Source: Gemmatimonadota bacterium (lineage in GTDB: Bacteria > Gemmatimonadota > Gemmatimonadetes > Palauibacterales > KS3-K002). Taken from it: DNA of 34,610 nucleotides. Under the pieces are notes generated by a model. That model saw only the letters and a list, made by a program, of their open reading frames with translations, was not told the DNA's origin and searched no databases. A program made the translations under genes and the position numbers. Position 1 is the first letter of the stretch; every line of letters begins with the position of its first letter. The stretch covers positions 1 to 34,610 of the forward strand of contig JBDHHM010000014.1 of the NCBI GenBank assembly GCA_039589355.1, in the 5' to 3' direction. Below, one piece after another: positions 3,057 to 34,179 of this stretch.

Positions 3057-4712
3057 ATGTTGCGCAAACACGTGGCTGTGCTGGCGCTCGCTCTCGTTTC
3101 GGCTTCTCCGGTCGGAGCCCAGGTACCGGATGCGCTGAGCGGGCGTCTGCTCTTTCAGATGGGGACGACCGATGCCGGGCACGAGACCTATAGCGTCGAA
3201 CGCCTGGCCGACGGCTATCGCATCGTCGGCGACGTCGACTTGCAGGTAATGAACTACCACATAGTTCAGCACCTGGAGGTCGAGGCGGGTGAGCGGTTGG
3301 AGTTCCGGTCTGCCGAAGTGCGGCTGACTGTTAACGACGAACCGACCACGGTGAGCCTGGTGCGGCGGAACGGCAGCGGATTCCAGGAAACGACGCAGGG
3401 CGACTCGACGGTGGCTCAGGACGTCGCGACGCCCGAATCATCGGTCCTGCTCACCAGCAACGTCATCCACCACATCGCCCAGTTCACCTGGCTGCATGAC
3501 GGCGGGGTCGGCGAGTCGCGGGAGCTAGTGGCCTTCCCACGGGTTCCCGTCACCGTCCTGCTCGAGGAGGTGGGCACGGCCCGATTGGGGGAGGAAACGC
3601 TCTCGTATCGCCGCTATTTCCTCAACATCGCCAACGCCATCGGCGCATATGTTTGGCTGGCTGACGACGGTACCCCGCTGAAGATCGCTGTTCCACTTCA
3701 GGCCTTCGTGGCCGTCAGCGAAGCGCACGCCCGGTGGTCGGACGCACTGAGCCAGGCGCGGGAGGAGCAGGAACCAGGGGCCGCTGCGGAGGCCGTTTAC
3801 GACGCCGAGGAGGTGACCTTCGAGTCGCAAGCGATCACCTTCGCCGGTACCTTGACGACGCCCAAAGGCGAAGGACCCTGGCCGGCTGTGGTGCTGATCA
3901 CCGGGTCCGGCGCGCAGGATAGAGATGAGAACACGCCTGGGCCGGGCGGCCTGAAGCTGGGTGTCTTCCGGACGATCGCCGATTCGTTGACTCGGCGCGG
4001 CATAGCAGTTTTGCGGTACGATGACCGCGGCGTCGGCGGCAGCGGTGGAAGTCTTGCCGACGCCGGGCTCAGCGGTCTCGTTGCCGATGTGGATGCGGCC
4101 GTCGGCTACCTGAGGAGTAATCCCGAGATCGACGGCTCTCGGGTGGGGCTGATCGGTCACAGCGAGGGCGGCATCATCGCGCCGATCGTCGCATCCCGGG
4201 GCAGTGAGATTGCAGCAATCGTTTTGATGGCCGGTACCGCCACGCCCATCGACTCTGTGATTCTCGAACAGTCGATCGAGCTTGCGCTGGCTGCCGGCGG
4301 TGATTCGGCCGACGTCGAGCGGGCCCGGCAGTCTACCCTTCGCCTGATGGATGCGATCAGGGAGGGCCGCGAGCCAGAGGACACGGATCTTTCGCCCGGT
4401 ACGCAAAGGTGGCTGCGCGAGCATATCGAGCACGACCCGATAGCGACAATCAAGCAGGTGCGTGCGCCGGTGCTGGTCGTGAACGGTGGCCACGACATCC
4501 AGGTATTTCCGGAGCATGCCCGGCGGTTGGGTGCGGCCCTCGAACAGGCAGGCCACCCCGACTACGAGGTGCGGATCTTCCCGGAGCTCAACCACCTGTT
4601 CGCCGTTTCGCGTGGCGAAGGGTTGGCCGAGTACGTCGACCCCGATGCCGAGGTCGACCCCGAGTTCTTGAGCTACATGGCCGACTGGCTGGTGGCACGG
4701 CTGGTCCGTTAA
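3057..4712 (+). CDS. Secreted alpha/beta-hydrolase with an uncharacterised N-terminal domain of about 250 aa
   Basis: Signal peptide MLRKHVAVLALALVSASPVGAQV. Nucleophile elbow GHSEGG. C-terminal ELNHLF histidine region. Confidence 0.75.
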   Translation: MLRKHVAVLALALVSASPVGAQVPDALSGRLLFQMGTTDAGHETYSVERLADGYRIVGDVDLQVMNYHIVQHLEVEAGERLEFRSAEVRLTVNDEPTTVSLVRRNGSGFQETTQGDSTVAQDVATPESSVLLTSNVIHHIAQFTWLHDGGVGESRELVAFPRVPVTVLLEEVGTARLGEETLSYRRYFLNIANAIGAYVWLADDGTPLKIAVPLQAFVAVSEAHARWSDALSQAREEQEPGAAAEAVYDAEEVTFESQAITFAGTLTTPKGEGPWPAVVLITGSGAQDRDENTPGPGGLKLGVFRTIADSLTRRGIAVLRYDDRGVGGSGGSLADAGLSGLVADVDAAVGYLRSNPEIDGSRVGLIGHSEGGIIAPIVASRGSEIAAIVLMAGTATPIDSVILEQSIELALAAGGDSADVERARQSTLRLMDAIREGREPEDTDLSPGTQRWLREHIEHDPIATIKQVRAPVLVVNGGHDIQVFPEHARRLGAALEQAGHPDYEVRIFPELNHLFAVSRGEGLAEYVDPDAEVDPEFLSYMADWLVARLVR

Positions 4713-4745
4713 CCTGGGCGCCCGGTGAACTCGGTGGAGTCCGGT

Positions 4746-5011
4746 CGGAGCCGGGTCGCTAAAACCGACGGGGGCGGACCTTCCGCCTTCGCTCGTCGGT
4801 CCCCCGGGCTCCTCCCGTCATCTCGGGGCTATATGCGACTAACGGGACAGCAGCGGTGAACAGCGGTTGGTGCTCACCCATCGGTTGCGGGCGTCGGGAC
4901 GGGTCGTCGAGCGGAGCTGGTGTTAGCGACCACGCGATCCCGGCGCAGGCGGGAGCGCGGGGGAGGCCGGAGCGAGACGACCGTCCCGACGCCCAAACCC
5001 GGATGCTGGCC
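4746..5011 (-). repeat. Structured intergenic repeat, copy A (about 266 bp)
   Basis: Shares the identical blocks CGGAGCCGGGTCGCTAAAACC, TCGTCGAGCGGAGCTGGTGTTAGCGA, GAGCGCGGGGGAGGCCGGAGCGAGACGACC and CCCGACGCCCAA with copies at 14568-14842 and 21657-21921. It ends at the base before the pfkA stop codon. The strand given is the orientation that follows the pfkA stop; the functional strand is unknown. Confidence 0.9.
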
Positions 5012-6085
5012 CTAGTCGCCGAAGCTCATCCCCAATGCCCGCGCGCTGGCGACGACGTCGCCGTCCACGGGCACTCCTTTCTGCCTGCAAATCGCGACGT
5101 CGAGAGGGATGCGGCGCACGTACGGCGGGTCGAGGGCGACCATGCAGCCGTAGTCGCCGTCATCGACGCACTCGATCGCCGCGGCGCCGAAACGCAAGGC
5201 GATGAGCCGGTCGTAGGAGATGGGCGAGCCGCCGCGCTGCAGGTGACGCAGGGCTATGGCGCGTGCGTCTTTTCCGGTCCGCTCGGCGACCTCGTTGGCG
5301 AGCACCTCGCAGACGCCACCGAAGCGCTTCAGCTCTGGGTCCTTGAACACCGGTGTGCCGCCGGCAGGGAAAGCGCCCTCGGCGACGACGATGATGGTGA
5401 AGCGGCGGCCGGCGCGGTCTCGTTCGGCGACCTTCTCGCATACCTTCTCGATGTCGTAAGGGATCTCCGGGATGAGGATGACGTCGGCGGTGCCGGCTAC
5501 TCCGGAGAACAGGGCTATCCAGCCGGTATCCCGCCCCATGACCTCGACTACCATGACACGCTCGTGCGACTGGGCCGTCGAGTGAAGCCGATCGATGGCG
5601 TCGGTGGCGATGTCTACCGCCGTTAGGAAGCCGAACGTCAGGACCGTGCCCTCGATATCGTTGTCGATTGTCTTCGGGACACCGACGACCGGCAGGCCCT
5701 TCTTGTACAGATCGCGGGCGATGCGCAGGCTCCCGTCGCCGCCTATCGCGATCAGTGCCTCGAAACCGTGCTCGCGGAATGCCGCGATGACGTCGTCCGA
5801 GCAATCGACCGCCTCGATCGATCCGTCCGGCTGCTTAACCGGGCGCATGAACGGATTGCCACGGTTCGTGGTGCCGAGGATCGTGCCTCCTACATGAGTG
5901 ATGCCGCGAACCGAGTCGCGGGTCAGCGGGACGATCTCGTCCTCGCCCAGCAGTCCCATGTAGGCCCGGTGGATGCCGTAGACCTCGTAACCCCGATTCA
6001 GAGCCGCCAGGGTGGCGGCGCGGATCACTGCATTCAGACCGGGGGCGTCACCGCCGCCGGTGTTGATCGCAATCTTTTTGACCAT
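5012..6085 (-). CDS. pfkA: ATP-dependent 6-phosphofructokinase
   Basis: MVKKIAINTGGGDAPGLNAVIRAA at the N-terminus, then IAIGGDGS (the ATP-type GGDG), PKTIDNDI and MGRDTG. The ORF extends to an upstream ATG at 6127, but the family N-terminus fits ATG 6085. Confidence 0.9.
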   Translation of the reverse strand: MVKKIAINTGGGDAPGLNAVIRAATLAALNRGYEVYGIHRAYMGLLGEDEIVPLTRDSVRGITHVGGTILGTTNRGNPFMRPVKQPDGSIEAVDCSDDVIAAFREHGFEALIAIGGDGSLRIARDLYKKGLPVVGVPKTIDNDIEGTVLTFGFLTAVDIATDAIDRLHSTAQSHERVMVVEVMGRDTGWIALFSGVAGTADVILIPEIPYDIEKVCEKVAERDRAGRRFTIIVVAEGAFPAGGTPVFKDPELKRFGGVCEVLANEVAERTGKDARAIALRHLQRGGSPISYDRLIALRFGAAAIECVDDGDYGCMVALDPPYVRRIPLDVAICRQKGVPVDGDVVASARALGMSFGD

Positions 6086-6292
6086 GGGGTACCTGCCGGT
6101 GGAGCCACAGTTCTCGCGCGGCGACATCGCGCCGCGTGACCGACCTAAAGGTACAGGCGCCGGCTAGAAAATTCGACACTAGACAGCGGACGGCCGTCCG
6201 GCCATTCTATCACTGTCCGAACTCCCAAACATGCCGATGCTCCGGTCCGCGCTCGAGCGCGTGGCGGGGGCCATCAACGCCGGAGGCTCCGA

Positions 6293-9947: not shown

Positions 9948-10277
9948 GTGTCACCGGAAAAGCCGCTGGTCATGGTCGCGGAGTACACGTTCCCGCGCTG
10001 GAAGGCCGTCGTGTACGGCGTACTCGTCGGCCTGCTGATCGGGTACGGAAACACCTTCCTGGAGGTCGACTTCACGTTACGAGCCGACCTGCTGGTCGCG
10101 TTGGTGATAGTCGCCATCGTGATCGTCGTGGTGGTGCATGAGGGCCTGCACGGCGGGGCGGGTCTGCTGCTCAGGATACGAAGTCCGGTGTCCAGGTGTG
10201 GAGACCGGAACCCGTGTGAGAGGCCTCGCGTTCGCACGGAGCGGAAGGACCGTCACCTCACTTGTACCCGCGTATGA
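9948..10277 (+). CDS. Small membrane protein with HExxH motif (DUF3267-like), possibly 3'-truncated
   Basis: GTG 9948 has GGGAGGAG 7 nt upstream. Two hydrophobic segments end in VVVVHEGLHGG, followed by a basic non-hydrophobic tail. The 3' end overlaps the convergent HD gene by 20 nt. Confidence 0.4.
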   Translation: MSPEKPLVMVAEYTFPRWKAVVYGVLVGLLIGYGNTFLEVDFTLRADLLVALVIVAIVIVVVVHEGLHGGAGLLLRIRSPVSRCGDRNPCERPRVRTERKDRHLTCTRV

Positions 10278-11169
10278 AATACTGGGAATCCGGCGTGCCG
10301 GGGAGTTCCCGGACCTCGCTGAGGTCATGGCTCACGGCGAACAGCTCGTACCGCGCCGGCCTGGTCGGCTGGCCGGGTATCTGAAAGAATACGGCGACGA
10401 CGGTTCTGTCATCCTCAGTCGCCCGATGCGACCTGATGCCTGTCCAAACCTTCCACTCGGGTCGGCGAGCGGCCAAATAGTCTCGTGCCGCTCGGCAGGC
10501 GGCCGTCGTCCCGACCAGGCGGCGGAGCCAGTTCCACGTCACGGTAGTCCCCTTTGATCTGGTAGCGAGGGTGGCCTCCGGGAGAAGCTCGAGCCAGTCC
10601 TCTGTGACCCGTGACTCGACTTTCCCGGCCAATTGCCCAAGAAACCAGCGGACGGGCCTTCGGCTCTTTCCCGCGGCCGAGCCGTCGATCACGAGGAAGG
10701 TCAGGAACAGATCCCAGTCACGCACGTTTTCGATGAGCGCGGCGAGCCGATCTTCGCTGAAGCGGCCCCGGGTGTGAAACTGCTGCCAGAGAGCGAATGG
10801 CTCATCGTGGTACTGTACAACGGCCAGTAGGGTGGGATCATTGCAGTAGTCAGAGAGGAACTCGCGTGCTAGCGACGCGTGGCTTCGTGCGTGAGCGATG
10901 GGAACGTTCGGCTCGGCAAGGCCCTTGAATGTGTCATGCGTGTGCATGATGATCATGAGCTTCCAGTAGTCCCCATCACGCAGTTCGGCTCGAACCAGAC
11001 CGAGGCTCCGTTCGAGCTCGTCTATGTGGGCGCGAACGGTTCCCTCCGGATGGCCTGGCCGGGGCTCGCCCCAGTCTAGCCCCTTCCGGTACCTCGGGTC
11101 CCGCCTGATCGCCTGAAGTACGGCTTCATAGTCGGTAGCGGGTCCCGCCGCCGTGGTGGAACGGTCAAT
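10258..11169 (-). CDS. HD-domain-like phosphohydrolase with extra C-terminal domain; start codon unresolved
   Basis: Motifs GHPEGTVRAHIDEL, LMIIMHTHDTFKG and YHDEPF. There is no in-frame ATG/GTG/TTG between the upstream gene's stop (11172) and the first His motif. The upstream part of the 468-aa ORF overlaps a better-coding frame. Confidence 0.5.
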   Translation of the reverse strand: MDRSTTAAGPATDYEAVLQAIRRDPRYRKGLDWGEPRPGHPEGTVRAHIDELERSLGLVRAELRDGDYWKLMIIMHTHDTFKGLAEPNVPIAHARSHASLAREFLSDYCNDPTLLAVVQYHDEPFALWQQFHTRGRFSEDRLAALIENVRDWDLFLTFLVIDGSAAGKSRRPVRWFLGQLAGKVESRVTEDWLELLPEATLATRSKGTTVTWNWLRRLVGTTAACRAARDYLAARRPEWKVWTGIRSHRATEDDRTVVAVFFQIPGQPTRPARYELFAVSHDLSEVRELPGTPDSQYFIRGYK

Positions 11170-11171
11170 CT

Positions 11172-11570
11172 TCAGAAGACCCGCCGAAGTAGGATGACAT
11201 GGCCCGCGATTAGGATGAGAAAGAGGAGCATCTCGAGCACCGTAGGCATGCAGCCGAAATCGTAGAATCCGCCGTATTTGCGCTCTACGAGTCCGGAACA
11301 TTGGGGGCACTTCTTGGGAATCGGGACCAGCGCGTCGCGCAGCCAGACCAGAAAACCCTGGAGGAGGACGATTAGAACGAGCTCGGCGAGAGGGACGACC
11401 ACCCAGTACCACCAGCGAAGGCCGAGTGCATCCGACAACGCTGGAACCATGAAAGCGGTTGCCGCAGCGGCCAGCCCGATCCAAAAGAGAATGGACGTTG
11501 GGGTTTGCCGCGCGGACTCGTAGCCGCACTGTGTGCAGCCGAACCCCACCACTTGGCCTGAGAAGAACAT
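11172..11570 (-). CDS. Membrane protein with split zinc-ribbon (CTQC ... CPQC)
   Basis: GAGGAGG lies upstream of ATG 11570. Third codon positions are strongly G/C-biased in this frame. Three hydrophobic segments and two CxxC pairs. Confidence 0.6.
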   Translation of the reverse strand: MFFSGQVVGFGCTQCGYESARQTPTSILFWIGLAAAATAFMVPALSDALGLRWWYWVVVPLAELVLIVLLQGFLVWLRDALVPIPKKCPQCSGLVERKYGGFYDFGCMPTVLEMLLFLILIAGHVILLRRVF

Positions 11571-11611
11571 CCCTGTTGTACCTCCTCGGATCGCTCTGCT
11601 GGCGCTGCCGC

Positions 11612-12280
11612 CTACTCGAGTAGCCTCTGCCTAGCGGTCTCGAGCGCCTCGCCGAAGGCGACATTCAGCTCCACGGTCCGATATCCTTCGGCGATGCACT
11701 CGAACATGTCGTCGTGGAACGCCAGCAGGTAGTGCTCGTACTGGTTCCAGCGGTACGGATCGTAGTTATCGTGAACGCCATTGATAGTTCTCTGTAGGGC
11801 GATCCAGCGGGAGTTCTGCACGAGGTAGGCGCCGTAGCCGCCGAAACCCCGACCGGTCAGCGGGTGTCCTCCGAACACCTCGTCGTTGGGTCCACCGAAT
11901 CGGTGGGCGTAACAGCGCTCGAACTCGACCAGCGCGATTCGCGAACGGCTGTCACTGCGTGGATCGGCGACCGTCACGTACGTGCCGTCCCAAGCCGGAT
12001 CTGGGTCCGCTATGTAGTACAGCAGGAGCGTCCGATGGCCGGAAGAGAGGACATGAGGCGATGGTGCCCCTACGTCCCAGGGCAACGGCCAATCGGATTC
12101 GATCGCGGCCTCTTCCCCGGTGGCGAGCGCCAGTGCACGCTCCGCGCTCAGGCAAGCTTCGCGTGCAAGAGAGTACTCATCCAGGCCGCCGCTCGCACTC
12201 TCGCCGGTCATAGCCCGTAGCGCTCTGTCGAGACGTTCCCTGGCCGACCGCAGTCTGCGCTCGAGTTCCTCCACGTCCAT
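11612..12280 (-). CDS. Hypothetical protein (N-terminal coiled-coil-like region plus uncharacterised globular domain)
   Basis: 222-aa ORF with AGGGG upstream. No recognisable catalytic motif. Distinctive segments are YLVQNSRWI and HYLLAFHDDMFECIAEGY. Confidence 0.6.
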   Translation of the reverse strand: MDVEELERRLRSARERLDRALRAMTGESASGGLDEYSLAREACLSAERALALATGEEAAIESDWPLPWDVGAPSPHVLSSGHRTLLLYYIADPDPAWDGTYVTVADPRSDSRSRIALVEFERCYAHRFGGPNDEVFGGHPLTGRGFGGYGAYLVQNSRWIALQRTINGVHDNYDPYRWNQYEHYLLAFHDDMFECIAEGYRTVELNVAFGEALETARQRLLE

Positions 12281-12313
12281 CGGTACCCCTACGGGTTGGG
12301 CACGGGAGCCGAT

Positions 12314-13726
12314 TCAGTGAGTGGTTTGAGCGCCGCCCCAGACCGTGAACAGTATCTGGAACGCGACCGGGCCACCTGTCACGCTCGGACTGGGCAACTG
12401 ACACAACTCGTCGCGCAGTTTCTGGAGCGTGTCGTCGGAGATGCCGGGTCGTGAGGCCATCGTCACGCTGGCGCTCCAGGCACCCGGTTCGATCTCGAGC
12501 TGTAGCATCAGCTCCTGTCCGGCGCCCGGCGGCTGTGTGCCGAAATAGCTCACGACGGTGTTCTTGATCACGTCGACGTAGGTCGCCAGCTCATCCACTC
12601 TCAGCCGCCGCGCGATCTCGTGCTCGGGTGTGAGCAGTACAATGCGCTTAACGTCGGTGGGCCCGACCTCCGTCTCGGGACCGCCTTCGGGCTCGTGGGC
12701 GCGCCAGCCTCCCTCGGCACGGTAGGTCAGGCCGTCCACCGGGTTCGAGTAGTCGCAGGCCAGCCACTCGAGGGCGAAGCCGAACCCACTGTTGCTGGGT
12801 CGCACTTCGACGGGGCTCTTGCTCGTGAGTCCGTTCTTGATGGCCTGCCACGACAGATCTCGTAGCGACATCATGAGCCCGTCTTCGACGATCAGGCCTT
12901 CGTCCTCGTTCTGGCCGGGCGCGAGTGCCAGGAAGCAACCGCTCAAGCGTGATCCTGCAGCGTTGGGCGCCGTGATCGCCTTCGCGTCTGTCTGTCCCGG
13001 CTTCCACACGAAGCAACCGTCGGCGGTGGGCTCGAGCTCGGTTAGCAGAACAGGTGGCGAGCTGGCGGGGAACTCGGCGAGCTGCTTCAGCAAACGCGCT
13101 CCGCTTTCTTCGGTCAGGCGGAACACGATCCGATCGCGTTCGAGACAGGCCGTCATCCCGGGCGCGTGGATGCGGGTCAACTGTGCGACGATGCTGTCTT
13201 CCAGTAGTCGGGCCATCGGCAGGCCGGGTCGTGCGCGATCGGCCCACGGCGGCCAGGGGTAGTGCGAGTAGGCCTGGCCCAGGCGACCGAGTACCCTCGT
13301 AATGCCGAAGGCCATGGCGGCCTCGATCTCTTCATCCCGGAGAAGGATGGCGGCGAGTCCGTCGGGGAATTCGACGCCCTCGAGGTACTCTCGGGTCGAG
13401 GTGTAAACGATGCCGCGGTGGCCCAGGAGCCCGGTGCCGCCGAGCTCGGTAATGTCGCCCGAGTCTGCCAATCTCCCGGCCTTGGCGAGCCGGAGCACTT
13501 CCACGAAAAGCCGTAGCGGCTCCTTGGGAAAATCGGCCGGCCCCTCCCCCGGATCGACTCGGACTGTCAGCAGGAGCTCGCGCTGGCCGTGCGCCGACAG
13601 GCCGTCGCTGGTATAGGACCAGCAAGGTATCGATGCGACCTGGTGCAGCCAGACGCGCGCCGACAGCTCGCCTGGGATCAGATCGAAGTGGAGGGGGAAG
13701 TCGCCGGGATCCGGGTTGGCAGGCAT
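12314..13726 (-). CDS. Hypothetical protein with SUFU-like (suppressor-of-fused family) N-terminal domain
   Basis: ATG 13726 has GAGGAG upstream and is preferred over GTG 13768. The N-terminal part (CWSYTSDGLSAHGQRELLLTV ... YPWPPWADRAR) resembles bacterial SUFU-domain proteins. The C-terminal region of about 280 aa was not recognised. Confidence 0.55.
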   Translation of the reverse strand: MPANPDPGDFPLHFDLIPGELSARVWLHQVASIPCWSYTSDGLSAHGQRELLLTVRVDPGEGPADFPKEPLRLFVEVLRLAKAGRLADSGDITELGGTGLLGHRGIVYTSTREYLEGVEFPDGLAAILLRDEEIEAAMAFGITRVLGRLGQAYSHYPWPPWADRARPGLPMARLLEDSIVAQLTRIHAPGMTACLERDRIVFRLTEESGARLLKQLAEFPASSPPVLLTELEPTADGCFVWKPGQTDAKAITAPNAAGSRLSGCFLALAPGQNEDEGLIVEDGLMMSLRDLSWQAIKNGLTSKSPVEVRPSNSGFGFALEWLACDYSNPVDGLTYRAEGGWRAHEPEGGPETEVGPTDVKRIVLLTPEHEIARRLRVDELATYVDVIKNTVVSYFGTQPPGAGQELMLQLEIEPGAWSASVTMASRPGISDDTLQKLRDELCQLPSPSVTGGPVAFQILFTVWGGAQTTH

Positions 13727-13877: not shown

Positions 13878-14522
13878 ATGCCGCAGGACAGATCCGGCCA
13901 GGGCGAGCGCCGCTTGATACGCACGGCCGACATTTCGGGCAAGGAGCGCTACCAGCTTCTCACGTCGCTCGTCGTACCCAGGCCGATCGGCTGGCTCTCG
14001 ACCTTTGCGAAGGATGGGACGGCGAACCTGGCGCCGTTCAGCTACTTCGCAGCGCTGGCCGACACGCCGATGCTCGTCGGCGTCTCCATCGGCTGGCGCG
14101 CCGGCGAACCGAAGGACACGCTCCGCAATATCCTGGACACGCGGGCCTTCTGCATCAACGTGGTCACCGAGCCGCAGCTGGAAGCGATGAACGCCACTTC
14201 AGGGGACTATCCGCGCGGGGTAGATGAGTTCAAGGTGGCTGGCCTGCCCATGGCGAACGGGTCGCTGGTTCGAGCGCCCTATGTCGAAAACTGCCCCGCC
14301 GTGATGGAATGCCGGCTCTACAAAGAGGTCGCGCTGGGGACGGCATCGAACAACCTTTTGTTGGGAGAGGTTCTGGCGGTGCGGCTCGGGTCTGAGCTAC
14401 GACTGGTTCCCGGTACCCAGCACGTCGAGACGGAATCGCTGAAGCCGGTCGGCCGCCTGTTCGCCAGCGGCTACACGCTGCTCGGCAAGATCAAGACGGT
14501 GCCGCGCCCCCAGGTGGGCTGA
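13878..14522 (+). CDS. Flavin reductase family protein (FMN-binding split barrel)
   Basis: AGGAG lies 7 nt upstream. Family motif LLTSLVVPRPIGWLSTFAKDGTANLAPFSYF. Confidence 0.8.
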   Translation: MPQDRSGQGERRLIRTADISGKERYQLLTSLVVPRPIGWLSTFAKDGTANLAPFSYFAALADTPMLVGVSIGWRAGEPKDTLRNILDTRAFCINVVTEPQLEAMNATSGDYPRGVDEFKVAGLPMANGSLVRAPYVENCPAVMECRLYKEVALGTASNNLLLGEVLAVRLGSELRLVPGTQHVETESLKPVGRLFASGYTLLGKIKTVPRPQVG

Positions 14523-14567
14523 AATGTCGACCCGGATCCTGCATCCCATGCCTGAAAAGACATGATA

Positions 14568-14842
14568 GCCCGGCCTCCGGGGGTTGGGCGTCGGGGCGGT
14601 CGTCTCGCTCCGGCCTCCCCCGCGCTCACGGCTGCGCCGTGATCGCGGGCTCGCTAACACCAGCTCCGCTCGACGACCCGCCCCGACGCCTGTAACCGGT
14701 GGGTGAGCACCAACCGCTGCTCACCACTACTGTCCCCCTGGTCGCGTATTCGCGGGGGATGCTTCTGGTCCCCGCCTCGATCCGGGCCGGGAGGAAAGCC
14801 GGGGGACCGACGAGCGAAGTTGGTTTTAGCGACCCGGCTCCG
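14568..14842 (+). repeat. Structured intergenic repeat, copy B (about 275 bp; inverted relative to copies A and C on the window strand)
   Basis: The reverse complement carries the same identical blocks as copies A and C. It starts 45 nt after the flavin reductase stop codon, in the same relative orientation as A to pfkA and C to the 1141-aa gene. Confidence 0.9.
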
Positions 14843-15122
14843 CCCTCGCCGCTCGAGGCGCAGGAGATCGTGGCGAGGGTGGCCAACGCGACGAGTAGCG
14901 ACTGAGAGGTTCTCATTTCCATACCTCAACGGTTTCGGCGCGTGAGCGGCGAGGTGTTGCACATTGGGTGGCGAACCCGGCGGTAGGGTTGGGTGGTTAC
15001 TAGGAAACAGGGCGCCATCCGGAGCACAGCCTCGCTGACGATAGGCGAAACGTGAGCGAAGTGGCCGGGGCTGCCCGCACGCACTGGCAAGGGGCCCTGG
15101 GGGCGAGCATTCTTATGAGCCA

Positions 15123-19637: not shown

Positions 19638-21509
19638 ATGCCGGACTTCAGAGCCCTGATCGAGAACGGCAGCGCCCATCTGTTCGATGGCGCCATCGGC
19701 ACCGAGCTATACCAGCGCGGCGTCTTCATCAACGTCTCTTACGACGAAATCAACCTGAAGAGCCCCGAGCTCGTGCGTGAAGTGCACCGCGCCTACCGCG
19801 AGGCGGGTGCCGAGATCCTCGAGACGAATACGTTCGGCGCCAACCGCGTGCGGCTCGACAGGTTCAGTCTCGGCGACCGGGTCGACGACATAAACAGGGC
19901 CGGCGCCGAGTTGGCGCGTGAAATCGCCGCGGACGACCGCTACGTAGCCGGCTCCATCGGGCCGCTGGGCATCCGTATAGAGCCGTACGGGCCTACGGCG
20001 CGTGACGAGGCCCGCGCCTTCTTCCGCGAGCAGGCGCAGGCACTGGCCGCCGGCGGTGCCGACGTCTTCATCATCGAGACGTTCGGCGACCTCTCGGAGA
20101 TCGAGCAGGCGATACTCGGGTGCCGCGACGCCGCTGATCTGCCGATCATCGCCCAGATGGCCGTGAATCCAGACGGGAATACCGCGTACGGCTATGACCC
20201 GGCGCGGATCGCCCACCACCTGGACGAGGCGGGCGCCGACGTTATCGGCCTCAACTGCAGCGTGGGACCGGCGCTCATCCACAAGGCGATCCAGAAGATG
20301 GCGGAGGTAACGAATCGGCCGCTCTCGGCGATGCCGAACGCGGGCCTGCCACGGGAGATCGAGGGCCGCAAGATCTACATGGCGTCGCCCGATTACTTTG
20401 CAAAGTACACGCGCCGACTGATCCAGGCCGGCGCACGCTTCGTCGGCGGTTGTTGTGGAACGACACCGGAGCACATACGCGCCATGGCGGCTCAGGTACG
20501 CGCGCTGCGCCCGGGCCGCCACACGATGGTCGTGGATGCGGTCCGCGACGTGGAACGACGTGAGGCGCATCCCGGGGTCGAGCCCGTCCCCGCAGCCGAG
20601 CGCTCGCAGCTCGGGCGCAAGATCTCAGCCGGCGAGCTGGTTACGAGCGTTGAGATCCTGCCGGCGAAGGGGTGCGATCCGGCCGACGTCCTCGAGAAAG
20701 TGCATGCGCTGAAGGCGGCCGGCGTCGATGCGGTTAACGTGCCCGATGGTCCCCGTGCGATGATGCGGATGGGCGTTCTCGCCAGTTGCGCGATCATCGA
20801 GCGGGAGGTCGGGCTCGAGACGATCCCCCACTACTGCTGTCGCGATAGAAACCTGCTGGGGATGATGAGCGATCTACTGGGCGCCCACGCCCTGGGGCTA
20901 CGCAACCTGCTCATAATCACGGGTGATCCACCGAAGCACGGGCCGTACCCCGACTCTACGGCGGTCTTCGACATCGACTCAGTCGGGCTCACCAACCTGG
21001 TGCGCAAGCTCAACGAGGGACTCGATCTCAGCGATAACTCCCTCGGGTCCGCCACCAGCTTCTTTCACGGGGTGGGCGTGAACCACGCGTCGGTCGATCC
21101 CGACTACGAGATCCATCACTTCGAGTGGAAGGTGGATGCGGGCGCGCAGTTCGCAGTGACGCAACCGATCTTCGACGTCCAGACCTTCCTGGAGTTTCTT
21201 GAGAATATCGACAACGTGCGCATTCCCGTCGTGGCCGCCGTCTGGCCGCTGGTCTCCTACCGCAACGCCGAGTTCATGGCCAACGAGGTGCCCGGCGTGG
21301 TCGTGCCCGACTCGATCCTCGAGCGGATGCAGCGCGCCTCCGAGCGCGGGAAGGACGCGGCGATGGAAGAAGGGCTGGCCATAGCACGCGAGATGGTGGA
21401 AGCGCTCGAGCCCCACGTACAGGGCATACAGGTGAGCGCGCCGTTCGGCAAGGTCGGTTTCGCGCTGCAGGTGTTCGAAGCGCTGGATGGTTGGGAGAAC
21501 CGGGCGTAG
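19638..21509 (+). CDS. yitJ: Bifunctional homocysteine S-methyltransferase / 5,10-methylenetetrahydrofolate reductase
   Basis: The N-terminal Hcy-binding domain has GAIGTELYQRG, ILETNTFGAN, LNCSVGP and GGCCGTTPEHI zinc ligands. The C-terminal half is MTHFR-like (VEILPAKG..., ITGDPPK...). The architecture matches Bacillus YitJ. Confidence 0.9.
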   Translation: MPDFRALIENGSAHLFDGAIGTELYQRGVFINVSYDEINLKSPELVREVHRAYREAGAEILETNTFGANRVRLDRFSLGDRVDDINRAGAELAREIAADDRYVAGSIGPLGIRIEPYGPTARDEARAFFREQAQALAAGGADVFIIETFGDLSEIEQAILGCRDAADLPIIAQMAVNPDGNTAYGYDPARIAHHLDEAGADVIGLNCSVGPALIHKAIQKMAEVTNRPLSAMPNAGLPREIEGRKIYMASPDYFAKYTRRLIQAGARFVGGCCGTTPEHIRAMAAQVRALRPGRHTMVVDAVRDVERREAHPGVEPVPAAERSQLGRKISAGELVTSVEILPAKGCDPADVLEKVHALKAAGVDAVNVPDGPRAMMRMGVLASCAIIEREVGLETIPHYCCRDRNLLGMMSDLLGAHALGLRNLLIITGDPPKHGPYPDSTAVFDIDSVGLTNLVRKLNEGLDLSDNSLGSATSFFHGVGVNHASVDPDYEIHHFEWKVDAGAQFAVTQPIFDVQTFLEFLENIDNVRIPVVAAVWPLVSYRNAEFMANEVPGVVVPDSILERMQRASERGKDAAMEEGLAIAREMVEALEPHVQGIQVSAPFGKVGFALQVFEALDGWENRA

Positions 21510-21510
21510 G

Positions 21511-21588: not shown

Positions 21589-21656
21589 CCGGCAGTCGAG
21601 GTCGGTGGTTGCTGCGAGTACGTCGGGTAGCTCACCCGCGGACTTGGCCCATAAAT

Positions 21657-21921: not shown

Positions 21922-24900
21922 TTAACGGCAGCCGACGAAACGCACGCCGCTCTGGCGGTCGCCGATGACCTCGGCCAGACTCGCCAGCACGTAGTCGATA
22001 TCCTCGTCGGTATTGCCGACGCCGAGGGACATCCGGATGGCGCAGTGTGCGTCCTCGTCGCTCAGTCCCATCGCCACCAGTACGTGGGACGGTTCGGGGT
22101 TGCCCGATTTGCAGGCGGAGCCGGACGAGAAGAAGACGCCGTGCCGGTCGAGGAACAGCGCGAGCGACTCGCCGCGCATCTCGGGCAGCGTCATGTTGAG
22201 CGTGTTGGGGAGCCGCTGCGTCGCATGTCCGTTGAGCTTCGCCGCCGGGACGATCTGCCTGATTCCCGCCTCCAGTCTGTCGCGCAGCTCTCGCACCCGC
22301 TCCGGCTCCCTGTGGTTCAAGCGGCGCGTGCCGAGCTCGCAGGCCTTACCGAAGCCCACAATGCCCGGGACGTTCTCGGTGCCGGCGCGCAGCTTCCGCT
22401 CCTGACCGCCGCCGTGGATGACCGGCGACAGCTCGACGCCCTGGCGCACGTAAAGGGCGCCTACCCCTTTGGGCCCGTGGATCTTGTGGCTGGAGACAGA
22501 GAGCAGATCGACGCCCAGCTCCGCAACATCGATGGGTAACTTGCCGAGTCCCTGCACCGCATCGGTGTGAAACAGCGCACCGTTCTGGCGAGCGACATGA
22601 GCCAGTTCAGCGATCGGATTGATCGTGCCCACCTCGCTGTTCGCCATCATCAAGCTGACGAGGATCGTCTGTGGGGTGATGGCGCCGGCGAGTGCCTGGG
22701 GGTGCACCATTCCGTCGGAGTCGACGTCCAGGCAAGTGATCTCGAACCCGAACTCCTTGAGCGACTCGCAGGTCTGGAGGACGGCCGGATGCTCGACCGT
22801 CGACGTGATGATGTGGTTCCCCGCGTCGCGCTTCGCGAACGCCACGCCCTTGATCGCCAGGTTGTCCGACTCGGAGCCGCCGCCTGTGAACACGATGCGG
22901 CGCGCCGTGCAGTTCAGAGCCTGGGCCACCTTCCTGCGCGCCGCCTCCACCGCATCACGCGCCTCGACCCCGCGGCTGTGGATGCTGGACGGGTTGCCGT
23001 ACTCTTCTTCCAAGAACGGTAGGATCGTTTCGAGTACCTCGGGGTCCACCGGCGTCGTGGCATTGTGATCCAGGTAGACCCGTCTCCGCGGCTTCTGCGG
23101 CCTAGCGATCTCGACCACCGCCTCGCTCTCGTCTTCGGCGACACGCCCGGAGCCGTTCGAGCCCTCCGCCCTGACCACTTCGCAGAGCAGCGCCTTGTAG
23201 ACGGGGAAGCCCGAGATCGGGTCGTAGCGACTGAGGTCCGTGAGATCGTTGACGTTGCACTCCTGCCATTCCTTCGAGCCCAGTGGGCCGCCCCCTCCCA
23301 TGTTGGCGTCGATGGCGCCCTCGACGATGTCGGCGGTGACCCGCGCCTGGAAGCGCACTCTGCCGCGCGGAGTCGCCACCCAGACCCAGTCGCCGCTCTC
23401 GATGCCGCGCTCCGCCGCATCTCGTGTGTTCATAGTCACTTGCGGGACCGGCGCCTTGCGGCTCAGGCCCTGAACTCCGTGATGCTGTGTTCGGAAGTCG
23501 GCGAAGATGCGCGCACCCGAGTTGAAAACGAGAGGGTGACTCTCCGCCAGCGCCGGCTGCACCAACGGCCCTTCGCCCGGCTCGGTGTAGACGGGGAGCG
23601 CGTCGTAGCCGTGCTCCTCGAGAATGCTGGAGGCGATCTCGAACTTGCCTGATGGCGTGGCGAAACCGGGCTCGCCGTCCTCGCGCAACATCCCCTTCTC
23701 CCACTTCTTGTACTGCATCATCGCTGTGGGGATCTGCACCTCGCCGCCTGCCTCGCGCACATCCTCCAACGTGAAGCCCGAGCCTTCGAGAACGTGGCGC
23801 AGCAGGTCTTCCTCGGTGCGCGGATAGGAATCGCCGTATCCCAGGCGGTCCGCCAGCTCCGTGAGGATGAGGTAATCGTTCCGCGCCTCCCCTACGGGCT
23901 CGGTCAGCTTCTCGCGGATCTTGAAGATCGGGCCGTAGGTCATGTACGAGGTGATCTCGTACATGGTGGTGGCCGGCAGAACGATATCGGCGTAGGCGGA
24001 GTCGGCCGTATGGTGGCGGTTGATGGTGACGAGGAAGTCGAGGGCGCTTAGTGTGTCGCGCCAGACCTGCGACTCCGGCCAGGCGGTGATGATAGAGCCG
24101 CCCAGGACGATGAGTCCGCGGATCTTGTACGGTTCGCCTTTCAGCACCGAGTCGGGAAGCGCGATCGCGTGTGACTCGCCCCGGTACATACTATAGACGG
24201 GAAAACGATCGCGGCCCAGAGCCTTCTTCACGTTCGGATTCGGGATCAGCCCGGCGCGGTTGATCGGGAACTGGTTCTCCCGCATGCGAATGGCGAGGCC
24301 GCCGGGGACATCGAGCTGGCCGGCCAGGGCCCAGAGCGTGAAGACCGCGCGGATCGCCTGCACGCCGCTGTCGGAATACTCGAGCCCCGTGTACATGATG
24401 GGGCAGGCGCCGCGGGCCCGGGCGATGCGGCGAGCCAGTTCGACGACCTTTGCCGCCGGTACTCCGGTGATTTCCTCCACCACCTCCGGTCGATAGTGCT
24501 GCACGTACTGGGCTAACTCATCGAAGCCTACGGTCCAGTGCTTGACGAACTCCTCGTCGTGGAGCTCTTCCTCGATCAAGAGGTTGATCATGCCGAGCGC
24601 TAACGCGCCGTCGGTGCCGGGGCGAATAGGGATCCACTCGGCGTCGACCTCGCGGGCCGTATGGTTGCGTTGCGGGTCGATGCAGACCACTTCGGCGCCA
24701 CGGAGTACGGCCCGCTTAATCTGCTCGTGGGCCAGCGGCGGCGAGTCGGTCGCCGGGTTGGCGCCCCAGATCACGATGAGCTCTGCGTTCTCGATGTCGT
24801 GATCCATCGTGTGGTAGTACTCGCCGAATGTGACGTGCGGCGCGATCATCGCGAACGACACGTAACAGAGCGCACCCACACCCAGTGTGTTGGGCGAGCC

Positions 24901-25347
24901 GAAGGGGAAGAGGACGCTCGAGGCGGATGAGATGGCTACACCCGCAGGCTGGAAGACATCGCAGAGCGCCAGCTCGAAGCTGCCGCGGCCTGTGTAGATT
25001 GCGGTCGCTTCCGGGCCCGACTCGTCTCTTATCTTACTGAGGTTCTCGACGATGATCTCGAATGCGTCGTCCCAGCCGATGCGCTCGAACTCGTGCGTGC
25101 CCTTGAGGCCCACACGGCGCATCGGGTACTGGAGCCGATCGGGGTCGTGCACGATCTCCGATGAGTGAGCGCCGTTGGTGCAGATCATCCCCAGCGGGTG
25201 ATCCTGCGGCCGCACGCCCGCTATCCGCCCGGCCTCCAGGGTGACGGTCACCCAGCAACCGGCGGGGCAGATGCCGCAGAGGCCATCTCGCTCTTCGATG
25301 CGAGCACGCTTGGCCGCCTCACGACGGCTCATGGTGGCCTTATGCAT
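21922..25347 (-). CDS. Fusion of molybdo/tungsto-pterin oxidoreductase module and NifS/IscS-type cysteine desulfurase (metallopterin-dependent ergothioneine synthase-like)
   Basis: Single 1141-aa ORF. Residues about 1-745 carry the CGICPAGC [4Fe-4S] motif and bis-MGD family layout. Residues about 757-1141 carry VYLDHNATTP, SSHKIHGPKG (PLP lysine) and SSGSACKSG (catalytic cysteine). The junction is near nt 23079. The ATG lies 3 nt after the egtD-like stop codon. Confidence 0.85.
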   Translation of the reverse strand: MHKATMSRREAAKRARIEERDGLCGICPAGCWVTVTLEAGRIAGVRPQDHPLGMICTNGAHSSEIVHDPDRLQYPMRRVGLKGTHEFERIGWDDAFEIIVENLSKIRDESGPEATAIYTGRGSFELALCDVFQPAGVAISSASSVLFPFGSPNTLGVGALCYVSFAMIAPHVTFGEYYHTMDHDIENAELIVIWGANPATDSPPLAHEQIKRAVLRGAEVVCIDPQRNHTAREVDAEWIPIRPGTDGALALGMINLLIEEELHDEEFVKHWTVGFDELAQYVQHYRPEVVEEITGVPAAKVVELARRIARARGACPIMYTGLEYSDSGVQAIRAVFTLWALAGQLDVPGGLAIRMRENQFPINRAGLIPNPNVKKALGRDRFPVYSMYRGESHAIALPDSVLKGEPYKIRGLIVLGGSIITAWPESQVWRDTLSALDFLVTINRHHTADSAYADIVLPATTMYEITSYMTYGPIFKIREKLTEPVGEARNDYLILTELADRLGYGDSYPRTEEDLLRHVLEGSGFTLEDVREAGGEVQIPTAMMQYKKWEKGMLREDGEPGFATPSGKFEIASSILEEHGYDALPVYTEPGEGPLVQPALAESHPLVFNSGARIFADFRTQHHGVQGLSRKAPVPQVTMNTRDAAERGIESGDWVWVATPRGRVRFQARVTADIVEGAIDANMGGGGPLGSKEWQECNVNDLTDLSRYDPISGFPVYKALLCEVVRAEGSNGSGRVAEDESEAVVEIARPQKPRRRVYLDHNATTPVDPEVLETILPFLEEEYGNPSSIHSRGVEARDAVEAARRKVAQALNCTARRIVFTGGGSESDNLAIKGVAFAKRDAGNHIITSTVEHPAVLQTCESLKEFGFEITCLDVDSDGMVHPQALAGAITPQTILVSLMMANSEVGTINPIAELAHVARQNGALFHTDAVQGLGKLPIDVAELGVDLLSVSSHKIHGPKGVGALYVRQGVELSPVIHGGGQERKLRAGTENVPGIVGFGKACELGTRRLNHREPERVRELRDRLEAGIRQIVPAAKLNGHATQRLPNTLNMTLPEMRGESLALFLDRHGVFFSSGSACKSGNPEPSHVLVAMGLSDEDAHCAIRMSLGVGNTDEDIDYVLASLAEVIGDRQSGVRFVGCR

Positions 25348-31172: not shown

Positions 31173-33438
31173 ATGGCCGATCCGCTGCAGCTGCTGGGGC
31201 GTACCGACAAGTTCTACCTGGGCTCGGGGAGCGGTATCATCTTCGCGCCGCGCTTTCCGCGCTGGCTCGAGTACCCCGGCTTCTGGGATGACATCGACGT
31301 CTACCACTACCAGCTCGCACCGCTCTTCACCGTCACGCTGCTCAGCGAGCGCGAGGACGCGCCCGGCGGTCCGGTGGTGCTGCGGCAGCTGAGCCGCCGC
31401 TGGTCGCCGGCCGAACTGGTCTGCGAGTACAAGTCGGAGGACGGCCTGCACGCCTGGGAGCACCGCTCGGTCGTGCCCGGCGGCTGGTTCGTGTCGGAGT
31501 GGAGCCTGCACAACTCGAGCGGTGCGGATCGGACGCTGCTGGCGGTGGCATGGACGGTCCAGGACGCCGACGGCGTCGACCTGGGCACGGTGGAAGCGGA
31601 GGCCGGGGCGGTGCGTTTCCGCTGCGCCGTCCAGGATCTGCACATCCATCGCGTCGGCGTCGATGTGGCGCTGGAGGCGCCGATCGATGCGATCGCCGGT
31701 TGCGCCCACCTGGCGGAACGCTCGAGCTTCGACCCGCGCTGGGAGTTCACGCCGTTCCCGGAGAGCTGGCGTCACCGCCTCGAGACGTCCGTTCGGATCG
31801 CCGGCGTCAGCCAGGCGGGCGCGCTCTACGCGGCTGCGGTATCGCGCGTGAAGGTTCCGGCCGGCGGCGCGGCGACGGCAACGCTTCGCGCCCGGGTCAG
31901 AGCGGAGAACGCCCGTGACGTTCAGATGACCAGCCCGCTCGCCGGCCACCTCAGAGAACACGCGCCGCCGCCCCCGCCGATCTCGGACGTCGAGCCGCCG
32001 GTCGGGGCTGAGCCCGGTGCGGTGAGCCGCGTCGGATGGACCGCCTACTTCCGCTCGGTGCCCGAGTTCTCGTGCTCCGATCCCTACCTCGAGGGCTACT
32101 GGTACTACCGCTGGTATGGGCTGCAGCTCTGCAGCCACGAAGGCGGCGTGGCGAACCATCCCTATCCGGGCTGCTGCGAGGGGACCGGCTACTTCCACGT
32201 GCCCATCGCCTACAGCGCACAGTGTCACGCCCGCGAGCTGCGCTGGCTGCCCGACCCGGCGTGGGCGCGCGGGGTCGTCTTGAACTTCCTAGCCCACCAG
32301 AAAGAGAGCGGCGAGTTCCACGGTCGTGTCTACGTGAACCACCTGGCGCACACCGATTTCTACTTCGCGAACTGGGGCGACGCGGTGCTCGCAGTCGATG
32401 CGGTGCACCCCGACGATTCGTATCTGCGGGCCGTCTACGATCCGCTGGCACGCTACGCCGAATGGCTGGCCCGCGAGCGGGACGCCGACGACACCGGTCT
32501 CTACGACGTCATCGATCACTACGAGACCGGCCAGGAGTACATGAGCCGCTACATGGCGGTGAGCGATGAGGCCGATAGCGAGGCGTGGGGCAGGAAGATT
32601 CGCCTCAAGGGCGTCGACGTGACGGTGTACGCCTATCAGCTACAGCGCGCGCTGGCGACGATCGCCGACCGGCTCGGCGACCCCAATGGCGTGAAGCGCT
32701 GGGAGAGCGTCGCCGACCGGACCGGCGACGCGATCATGGGTCTCATGTGGGACGAGAGCACGTTGATGTTCCACGATATCGAGCCGGGGACTATGGAGCG
32801 GACGCAGGCCAAGGCTGCGATTCACTTCTATCCCTTTTTCACCGACCTCGTCGGGCCCGAGCAAGTCGAGGGGCTGCGCTCGCACCTCCTGAACCCGGAA
32901 GAGTTCTGGACGATCTATCCCGTGCCGTCCAGCAGCGTCGATGACCCGTACTTCAGTCCCGACGCCGAGTGGAGGGGGAAGCGGCACAACTGCCCCTGGA
33001 ACGGTCGAGTCTGGCCGATGGCGAACTCGCACGTCGCGGAAGCGCTTGCCAGGGTAGCGATCGAGCACGATCCCGGGCTACGCGATCGGGCGGTGGAGCT
33101 TGATGTTCCACGACGGTGACCCGGCGCGGCCGAACTGCTACGAGCACTACAACCCGGAGACCGGCACACCTTGCCTCTACCGCGGCTTCGACGACTACCA
33201 GCACTCCTGGGTGAACGATCTCATAGTGAAGTACGTAGTAGGCTTCCGCCCCCAAGGCGGTGATTCGTTCATCGTGGACCCGTTCCCCTTCGAGATCGAA
33301 TCGTTCCGCCTGGCGCGGCTCCCCTTCCGCGGCCACCAGGTGGGGGTCGAGTTCAGGGAGACGCGATTCAGGGTCCGGCTCGACGGCGAGGTCATCGCCG
33401 AGTCGTGGATCGGTGAGCCGGTGGAGATCGGGCTCTAA
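31173..33438 (+). pseudogene. (alpha/alpha)6-barrel glycoside hydrolase (GH63/MGH1-like), interrupted by a +1 frameshift near 33095-33105
   Basis: ORF 31173..33119 ends in ...RDRAVELDVPRR*. The expected C-terminus (MFHDGDPARPNCYEHYNPETG...WVNDLIVKYVVGF) continues in the next frame at 33100..33438. The combined length is not a multiple of 3. Confidence 0.65.
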
Positions 33439-33657: not shown

Positions 33658-34179
33658 CTAGGTATCGCGCTTCGTCGCCCGCACCCAGGCGGCGCGGACG
33701 CGCTGCGACCAAACCGCGAATCCCTCTCTCAGGCTACCGGGATCCGGACGGAAGCGGACGGCCAGCAGCTGCTCGGCCGGGATCAGCGGATTGAACAGCG
33801 TGTCGATGCGGTAGGCTTGTTCCCCGCGAAACTCCAGCATGTCGACGCCTTCGAACTCGACGGACCGTCCTGTCGCCGCGAAGCCCGGCGGGTTCATGAC
33901 GCCGAGATTCGTCGCCGTGATCTTCCAGGGAACGGCGCAGCGGCTGCCGTCGGCGGCGATACAAATCGGGTGGCGGATGACGTAGTGGAAGTCGGGGAAC
34001 GCCCGCAGGACCGTCTGGGCGAAGCTCCGCACCGCATCGTGGCCCTCAGCCGGCGCCTGCATCGCCGGGTCGTCCCACACCACATCCTCGGTGAGGTACG
34101 AAAGGAACCTGTCGAGGTCCCTCGAGTTCCAGGCTTCGGTCAGCCCTTCGACAAATGCGGGGATCTGTTGGGGCTTCAT
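33658..34179 (-). CDS. SnoaL-like / NTF2-fold (ester cyclase family) protein
   Basis: FVEGLTEAWNSRDLDRFLSYLTEDVVWDDP and FEGVDMLEFRGEQ are typical of the fold. The ATG overlaps the cupin stop codon (ATGA). Confidence 0.7.
   Translation of the reverse strand: MKPQQIPAFVEGLTEAWNSRDLDRFLSYLTEDVVWDDPAMQAPAEGHDAVRSFAQTVLRAFPDFHYVIRHPICIAADGSRCAVPWKITATNLGVMNPPGFAATGRSVEFEGVDMLEFRGEQAYRIDTLFNPLIPAEQLLAVRFRPDPGSLREGFAVWSQRVRAAWVRATKRDT

Follow-up and report, generated by a model that had tools for sequence, protein, structure and literature searches.

A modular, structured interspersed repeat family of Gemmatimonadota with likeness to REP and BIME elements

We analysed a DNA stretch of 34,610 nucleotides (the window hereafter) that corresponds to positions 1 to 34,610, forward strand, of contig JBDHHM010000014.1 in assembly GCA_039589355.1, from a Gemmatimonadota bacterium. 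Gemmatimonadota are abundant in soils and saline sediments and are poorly studied. The window carries three copies of an intergenic repeat, each flanked by convergent genes whose products were assigned with Pfam. Copy A (4746-5011, plus strand) lies between an alpha/beta hydrolase gene (3057..4712, plus) and pfkA (5012..6127, minus); copy B (14568-14842, minus strand) follows a flavin reductase gene (13878..14522, plus); and copy C (21657-21921, plus strand) separates a homocysteine S-methyltransferase/MTHFR fusion gene (“MetH-like”; 19638..21509, plus) from a gene for a 1141-aa molybdopterin-oxidoreductase/aminotransferase fusion (21922..25347, minus). These limits come from a previous sequence-only reading of the window, and inspection of the sequence together with a three-copy alignment reproduced them, as well as the four blocks that are identical in copies A, B and C, the diverged, indel-bearing middle between the blocks, and the distances to the nearest stop codons (0 nt for pfkA, 0 nt for the 1141-aa fusion gene and 45 nt for the flavin reductase). 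The same reading had given all copies one orientation relative to these genes; the abutment to stop codons stands, and the genes it named lie on the strand opposite to the element as written. For each of two conserved 20-21-mers, the window contains three occurrences where 0.01 are expected, and none of 100 shuffled sequences reached three occurrences, which excludes chance similarity. As we describe below, the three copies belong to a new family of structured repeats, of which public assemblies from this phylum contain over 100 copies; it is a variant of the kind represented by repetitive extragenic palindromes (REP), bacterial interspersed mosaic elements (BIME) and miniature inverted-repeat transposable elements (MITE) and a member of none of them.

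The repeat had been described as a unit of 265-275 bp in three copies, and neither the boundaries nor the copy number held. When the alignment was extended upstream, this unit turned out to be the 3' two-thirds of a longer modular element, whose parts follow one another in a fixed order: an optional m0, one or more m1 units, m2, m3, a variable or deleted middle, a core module (m4), a tail hairpin and an optional m5. Module m1 is a 39-nt sequence (GGTCGGAGCCGGGGGACCGCTCGCTCCGGCCGACCCGG) present in one to four tandem units, m2 is variable and 64 nt long, m3 reads CGGAGCCGGGTCGCTAAMACCAGCTCCGCTCGTCGGTCCCCCGGCTCC, and m4 spans approximately 105-120 nt. Full elements measure approximately 410 nt (412 nt for copy C). 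Across loci, the combinations included m4 alone (34), m1-m2-m3-m4 (16), the same with a doubled m1 (10) and m3-m4 (9), and elements made of m1-m2-m3, m1-m4 or m1-m2-m4 were also present, as were tandem partial duplications of the 3' half of m4. In the window, copy C is a full-length element that occupies the entire stop-to-stop gap (21510-21921); copy A fills 4713-5011, from one stop codon to the next; and copy B extends through an additional shared module to the flavin reductase stop codon. Copies A and B are devoid of m1 and m2.

The core m4 forms two helices, P1 (approximately 20 bp) and P2 (12-14 bp), which are the two nested stems of the sequence-only reading (4889-4902/4981-4994 and 4933-4942/4950-4959 in copy A; 21843-21854/21860-21871 for the inner stem of copy C, all correctly placed) and which flank two internal-loop strands, J1 (GAGCGGAGCTGGKKTTAGCGAC) and J2 (GGGGGAGGCCGGAGCGA). 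The compensatory changes noticed among the three window copies were confirmed on 52 m4 copies (alignment A4). The 34 base pairs of this alignment, 20 in P1 and 14 in P2, were formed in 93.4% of the cells, compared to 83.3% in shuffles and 38-50% with slid partners, and 23 of the 34 pairs had changed on both sides (128 cells), with none of 500 shuffles reaching the observed value on any measure. As many as four Watson-Crick pair types were found at one position (columns 58-71: AU 40, GC 6, CG 3, UA 1). The loop strands J1 and J2, by contrast to these helices, are nearly invariant, each having been checked in the set of copies ascertained via the other. The fraction of copies differing from the consensus was 0.51 in the flanks, 0.21 in outer P1, 0.09-0.11 in P2, 0.03-0.06 in inner P1, 0.07 in J1 and 0.03 in J2 in the J1-ascertained set. 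In one copy (L092; loci of the comparison set carry L numbers throughout) the sequences of P1 and P2 are wholly different while J1 and J2 are unchanged. A third stem proposed from the window copies (GGTCGCTAAAACC with GGTGTTAGCGACC) is indeed complementary, yet it does not covary and is frequently interrupted. The covariance model built from m4 (R1; 34 base pairs, more than 100 copies, strong covariation) finds approximately 90 m4 copies and gives 26 matches to the 5' half described next; the larger alignment (A7) was fitted to the model. Rfam gave no match at the gathering score over the whole window, and copies A and C produced only chance-level matches at E<=5-10, with no omega-RNA or HEARO family among them.

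In 26 elements, R1 aligns with the opposite strand of the 5' half (m1-m2-m3) from end to end, scoring 41-54 bits. By this sequence comparison, m1-m2-m3 is an inverted, diverged paralogue of m4 (m4'), and the full element is shown to be an inverted doublet of two two-helix units. The helices of m4' are P1' (GGAGCCGGGGGACCG with CGGTCCCCCGGCTCC) and P2' (GACCCGGC with GCCGGGTC), the latter enclosing the m2 loop. In this fold 96.4% of the cells are paired and 4 pairs (9 cells) have changed on both sides, values that 0-2 of 500 shuffles equalled. Module m2 itself, examined for a conserved fold and a coding signal, had no consensus structure on either strand. J1 is complementary to m3 in 89% of cells and J2 to m1 in 99%, as follows from the halves being inverted paralogues. 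Long-range m3:J1 and m1:J2 pairings and local hairpins in m1 and m3 were also considered as folds; despite 89-99% complementarity, their covariation was not above that of shuffles and the P1'/P2' fold was adopted instead.

Several features indicate that, in each unit, selection for structure acts on one strand, whether in the form of RNA or of single-stranded DNA. In P1 and P2, the ratio of G.U pairs to A.C mismatches is 48:10 (for the larger, model-fitted set it is 78:31, and m4', taken on its own strand, gives 13:0), the fold of the forward, G-rich strand is the more stable in 51 of 52 copies, and R1 scores the window copies at 111-121 bits forward and 18-24 bits in reverse. In the doublet, the preferred strands of the two units are on opposite DNA strands, the 3' end of each unit faces outward to the stop codon of a neighbouring gene and the preferred strand is antisense to the gene that it abuts. 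The parts of the three window copies, with their strands and model scores, are as follows.

4713-4745, plus: leader of copy A, which begins at the alpha/beta-hydrolase stop codon; an m0 fragment (GGTGAACTCGGTGGAGTCCGGT, 4724-4745) is joined directly to m3
4746-4817, plus: m3 of copy A, CGGAGCCGGGTCGCTAAAACC...GGTCCCCCGGGCTCCTCCC, carrying an insertion of 18 nt when aligned with copies B and C (alignment and nhmmer module scan)
4818-4884, plus: variable middle of copy A, frequently deleted or replaced in other copies
4885-5003, plus: core m4 of copy A, with P1 at 4889-4908/4976-4994, J1 at 4909-4931, P2 at ~4933-4959 and J2 at 4960-4975; R1 112.3 bits forward, 18.3 bits on the reverse strand
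4995-5011, plus: tail of copy A, a small hairpin (AAACCCGGATGCTGGCC) ending at the pfkA stop codon (5012-5014, minus); this tail A follows m4 at many loci
14523-14567, minus: m5 of copy B (CTATCATGTCTTTTCAGGCATGGGATGCAGGATCCGGGTCGACATT), 45 nt that reach the flavin reductase stop codon (14520-14522)
14577-14695, minus: core m4 and start of the tail of copy B; R1 121.2 bits (minus) against 24.5 bits (plus)
14696-14786, minus: variable middle of copy B
14787-14842, minus: m3 of copy B
21510-21591, plus: m0 remnant (GCCGGG) and two tandem 39-nt m1 units (21516-21552, 21555-21591) of copy C, starting 1 nt past the MetH-like stop codon
21592-21655, plus: m2 of copy C, a variable loop of ~64 nt closed by P2' (the end of m1 with the start of m3)
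21656-21709, plus: m3 of copy C, which with m1 and m2 makes the inverted paralogous unit m4' (preferred strand minus; R1 match at 21550-21708, minus, 44.8 bits, model positions 1-120)
21710-21796, plus: variable middle of copy C
21797-21921, plus: core m4 (21797-21913) and tail of copy C, ending where the 1141-aa fusion gene has its stop codon (21922-21924, minus); R1 111.2 bits

Because m1 and m2 are missing, the inverted unit is incomplete in copy A. The leader of this copy also precedes the orthologous copy in L011, and L024 and L041 have the sequence of m0 ahead of m1. Sequences related to m5 follow the tail in L026, L040, L011, L014, L021, L060 and L055. Next to copy B, a minus-strand open reading frame (ORF) at 14654-14962 starts with a lipoprotein-like signal peptide (MRTSQSLLVALATLATISC) and reads straight into m3. 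The synteny between the window and L055, a contig of a close relative, also breaks inside copy B, and this sequence arrangement suggests a rearrangement, or a gene truncated at the repeat.

Searching for further copies, as the sequence-only reading had proposed, added approximately 90 from about 30 Gemmatimonadota assemblies to those of the window. The 20-mer GGAGGCCGGAGCGAGACGAC retrieved at least 72 loci from a collection of species-representative genomes, 70 of these 72 in Gemmatimonadota genome bins or chromosomes, and the two others (L004 and L018) do not match the element profile. A second pattern, from another part of the element, retrieved at least 45 further metagenome loci, and neither pattern had a match in viral contigs. 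The carriers include Candidatus Kutchimonas (order Palauibacterales) and many metagenome-assembled genomes, and the family is confined to a clade of Gemmatimonadota. The window genome shares approximately 92-95% nucleotide identity with bin BHB10-38_Bin_32, whose contigs L011 and L055 are syntenic with the window. Copies were ascertained through exact matches to J1 or J2, so that decayed copies are under-sampled, and some loci are the same population assembled repeatedly (L053/L103/L109, L044/L110/L115 and L054/L099/L114). Within a genome, copies are on average 78-84% identical and at most 93-95%; no identical copies were found within any one genome, which argues against recent bursts. Many copies are close to contig ends, as is the case for repeats that break assemblies. 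One of the carriers (L016, bin M8-62_Bin_360; 4228-4345, ~5860-5925 and upstream of 4283) has a variant m1, GGTCGGGAACGCGGGACCGCTCGCTCCGGCGTTG, in 3-4 tandem units and two m4-like units that overlap on opposite strands.

The gaps at gene ends are the preferred location of the elements. By the approximate counts of a crude gene caller based on GC content at third codon positions, which include some orthologous loci, about 24 of the 32 elements starting with m1 begin 0-50 nt past the stop codon of a co-oriented gene; the gene downstream is mostly convergent and 5-76 nt away; the downstream gene of m4-only copies is convergent in 21 cases versus 8; and only about 4 copies sit in divergent (promoter) gaps. 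Copies A and C contain neither a sigma-70-like promoter nor, on either strand, an intrinsic terminator (a GC-rich hairpin followed by a T-run). Elsewhere in the window, TTCTT comes after a hairpin of the classical terminator type (GAGCCCGGGCG-TATC-GCCCGGGCTC, 300-335), indicating that this genome also uses ordinary hairpin-plus-T signals.

Comparisons of orthologous loci show that elements have been gained and lost over species-level time. In L075, on chromosome CP070815, the gene pair that flanks copy C has no element and the two stop codons are 21 nt apart, compared to the 412-nt element in the window. At 623 aa, the MetH-like protein of the window is shorter than its closest homologues (627-628 aa), and its stop codon lies at the edge of the element: the C-terminus reads GWENRA* in the window (21489-21509) and GWTGRRVALP* in the 627-aa orthologue of L075 (4860-4887). 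Two unrelated genes are found at the position of copy C in L073 and L074. The empty and filled sites of copy C did not reveal a target-site duplication, and approximately 40 nt were replaced between them. In L030 (3142-3630), an m4 copy (~3266-3385) lies in-frame inside an ORF of 162 aa and encodes ...GRRAELGLATPRSRPSRERGGGRSETT..., whereas the orthologues in L053 and L029 have no m4 copy yet align on either side of it (E = 3e-44). Deletion derivatives were also found, one in L029 between GGGG repeats and one in L102 that retains only the 3' arm of P1 and the tail. The latter “empty” site may be a deletion product; this one filled-versus-empty comparison also hints that such a site already has the outer stem arm and tail beforehand. 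Finally, orthologous sites in different species hold different subfamilies, with many compensated differences between them, while the flanks are 88% identical, which means that the subfamilies were replaced and not conserved in place. Another length difference separates the window from L055 in an otherwise 92-93% identical syntenic block, where an indel leaves approximately 2.1 kb in the window (10191-12332) and approximately 1.0 kb in L055 (2807-3835).

We looked for a mobiliser among the genes around the copies. All-against-all clustering of the proteins of approximately 650 neighbouring genes (approximately 0.8 Mb) did not identify a transposase or other mobiliser near the copies, in agreement with what had been noted for the window. 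The recurrent proteins were housekeeping families only, with no Y1/HUH (by a crude motif screen), TnpB, IS110 or integrase-like protein among them. A gene for a 228-aa lipoprotein-type protein with the zinc-protease motif HELGHSLSLQH (HExxH) is situated between m1-m2-m3 and m4 in L053 (5686-6775, minus) and in L103 and L109. We rejected it as a gene cassette inside the element, for it represents one locus in three assemblies and the related L029 has a complete element before the gene and a deleted m4 remnant after it. Nor did our searches of open-licence PubMed Central and bioRxiv literature retrieve a description of repeats, MITEs or REP-associated tyrosine transposases (RAYT) in Gemmatimonadota. 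Terminal inverted repeats, whose linkage with target-site duplications to a transposase would have identified a plain MITE, were not found at the element ends.

Among known systems, the closest likeness is to BIMEs, taken up below, and to the REP elements of Pseudomonas and Enterobacteria and their doublets (REPIN). REP are imperfect palindromes of ~20-40 nt with a GTAG-like head, the RAYT gene is a single-copy Y1_Tnp gene flanked by the repeats, and REPIN populations are typically rich in copies of a master sequence. Like these systems, the family described here is composed of high-copy extragenic hairpin repeats whose replicative form would be an inverted doublet, persists in its lineage and has several subfamilies per genome. 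Both also share a conserved recognition sequence combined with compensatory changes in the stems, as described for REPIN hairpins (PMC3116915), and an action on one DNA strand that we infer for the repeats of the window. The doublet organisation is evident in the 5' half that fits the m4 model on the opposite strand and in the 89-99% complementarity of the halves. Unlike REP, however, the m4 unit is 105-120 nt long, has two helices and a large conserved internal loop and lacks a GTAG-type head. The halves of the doublet are diverged paralogues (m4' with its 64-nt loop), no RAYT gene turned up in the loci sampled, and no identical master copies are present, the maximum identity being 93-95%.

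The BIMEs of E. coli, whose protein partners are IHF, DNA gyrase and Pol I, are likewise fixed-order mosaics of short modules located after gene ends, with palindromic units in alternating orientation and a variable number of modules. The elements reproduce the fixed module order and the units on opposite strands but are unrelated in sequence, come from another phylum and have much larger structured units. Rickettsia palindromic elements are palindromic repeats of 100-150 nt that can sit in-frame within protein genes, and they are not known to be associated with a transposase. The size of our elements, the in-frame copy in L030 and the failure to find a transposase are reminiscent of this group; yet a single copy lies in an ORF, most are intergenic at gene 3' ends, and there is no sequence relation. 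MITE-type elements such as Correia of Neisseria, ERIC and BOX (the latter made of boxA, a repeated boxB and boxC) are non-autonomous, 100-400 nt long and strain-variable and form hairpins in transcripts. The elements share with them the size range, modularity, stable hairpins and variable presence. They differ in that they lack both conserved terminal inverted repeats and a target-site duplication and in that variability is greatest in the outermost stem, conservation in the interior. No curated covariance model, for group II introns or any other Rfam RNA, matched the elements. Since the defining features of REP, MITE, attC sites and known guide RNAs are lacking, the family is set apart from all of them.

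We favour, as probable though by no means certain, the interpretation that these are lineage-specific REP/BIME/REPIN-like, modular, hairpin-forming interspersed repeats of Gemmatimonadota that act single-stranded. The earlier suggestion of a REP/BIME-like element gains support from the copy number, the fixed-order mosaic, the inverted doublets and the gaps at gene ends, and also from the presence/absence differences, the in-frame ORF copy, the deletion derivatives, the lack of an Rfam match and the ~650 neighbouring genes devoid of a transposase. The G-rich strand of each unit would be the active one, either as RNA or, while DNA is being replicated or repaired, as a DNA hairpin, and a trans-acting protein encoded at another locus, which would copy or maintain the elements, would recognise them by the invariant J1 and J2 strands. 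By analogy, this predicted protein would work as RAYT transposases do for REP and REPIN. Selection would restrict the surviving copies to gaps at gene 3' ends, and the strong hairpins probably also influence the 3' ends of convergent transcripts that run into the elements. Several of our own results weigh against this interpretation. The search for a mobiliser was negative, the left junctions are heterogeneous and, with no terminal inverted repeats, do not define a clean insertion junction, the gene context counts are approximate, and the populations have no identical within-genome copies, unlike those of REPIN. In addition, J1 and J2 have stayed strongly conserved even where copies are old and diverged, possibly because host-level selection acts on each copy, which would point to a function rather than selfish spread, and ascertainment through exact J1 and J2 matches hides the decayed copies.

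The main rival, which we regard as possible but rather unlikely, is a host-functional RNA, with m4 and m4' as a cis-acting module that ends convergent transcripts as a bidirectional terminator, an insulator, a 3'-end stabiliser or a protein-binding RNA. In a doublet, a transcript would read through the C-rich strand of the nearer unit and stop on the well-folding, G-rich strand of the farther one, just before the opposing gene; in a variant of this model, the invariant GGA-containing loop strands would bind a putative regulator. Covarying helices with invariant loop strands are a signature of functional RNA motifs, the asymmetry between G.U and A.C and the strand-specific model scores are consistent with RNA, and the occupancy of stop-to-stop gaps between convergent genes fits as well. 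Old within-genome copies (78-84% identical) also retain J1 and J2 as if each were selected, and the A4 alignment allows for tandem G.A pairs (CGAGC/GCGAG) that could prolong P1 into the loop. However, the well-folding, G.U-tolerant strand is antisense to the abutted gene, which argues against a simple 3' untranslated region role of the kind first proposed for the window copies, and copies A and C have no promoter-like or U-tract terminator signature. About 11 of 26 m4-only copies also lack a co-oriented upstream gene, close relatives manage the same gene pair without the element and with a gap of 21 nt, and one copy is within an ORF. The ragged deletions, tandem partial duplications and replacement of subfamilies at the same site resemble, furthermore, the dynamics of selfish DNA. 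With still more reserve, m4 might be viewed as a new class of structured motif, with two covarying helices and a conserved asymmetric internal loop, that partners a putative protein. This would be either for hairpin-based mobilisation unlike that of Y1 and RAYT proteins or as a host-domesticated, bidirectional transcript-end or insulator module deployed in inverted pairs between convergent genes, and we consider the proposal speculative.

The topology of m4 (stem, large internal loop, terminal hairpin and invariant loop strands) also recalls orphan guide-RNA scaffolds, that is, end remnants of RNA-guided elements of the omega-RNA (TnpB/IscB) or bridge-RNA (IS110) type, which would use host DNA as guide and pair their loop strands with element sequences. 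The outward-facing 3' end of each unit, toward flanking host sequence, and the complementarity of J1 and J2 to the partner half (m3 in 89% and m1 in 99% of cells) would suit such a role. Yet this complementarity derives from the inverted paralogy and does not covary, the more than 110 loci have no tnpB, iscB or IS110 recombinase gene, and Rfam gave no omega-RNA or HEARO match even at E<=10, all of which makes the explanation very unlikely. Even less credible are site-specific recombination sites that mark gene cassettes, as integron attC sites do, a reading prompted by the sequence CGCTAAC...GTTAGCG and by the one bracketed gene. attC sites have R''/L''...L'/R' boxes (RYYYAAC...GTTRRRY), occur in same-orientation arrays and are the substrates of the IntI integrase. 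The AAC and GTT in the complementary arms of m3 and J1 are reproduced here, and the lipoprotein protease gene of L053, L103 and L109 does lie between the 5' half and m4. But CGCTAAC/GTTAGCG is only a partial match, covariation is lacking in the m3:J1 pairing, the three assemblies with the bracketed gene represent one locus, for which L029 has two separate elements, most copies are m4 alone, and neither same-orientation arrays nor an integrase were found; the attC-like reading is thus largely refuted. An assembly artefact or chance similarity, for which the many copies near contig ends might be taken as a sign, has a negligible probability: the family recurs independently in NCBI bins, in complete chromosomes and in metagenomes from JGI/ENA, its copies have flanks specific to each locus and occupy orthologous positions, and no shuffle matched it. 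The independent assemblies dispose of the collapsed-repeat artefact that the sequence-only reading had allowed for.

Two other repeats of the window were noted. An imperfect palindrome of ~135 nt at 368-502, A+T-richer than its surroundings, has the ends GGGAATTCGGGAATCC...GGATTCCCGAATTCCC; in L026 the element is closely preceded by a GGGAATTCGGGAATCC-like motif, and a GAATTCCGAAA-like sequence comes after “tail B” copies. This palindrome may be a second repeat family. The other, at 33429-33623, is an imperfect inverted repeat of ~195 nt with 93-nt arms that are 73% complementary, located between convergent ORFs (33100..33438, plus, and 33658..34179, minus) and unrelated in sequence to the m4 family.

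For the biology of these bacteria, the family accounts for assembly breaks and synteny breakpoints in the genome bins that carry it, and its elements alter the ends of proteins, as in the MetH-like protein shortened by 4-5 residues and the one small protein with an in-frame copy. R1 provides a well-supported covariance model that has no counterpart in Rfam. The question that the family poses is which protein reads the invariant loop strands, and whether on DNA or on RNA. With its outer stems variable and its interior invariant, the architecture of the elements is opposite to that of transposase-bound MITEs and could point to another way of copying or using hairpin repeats.

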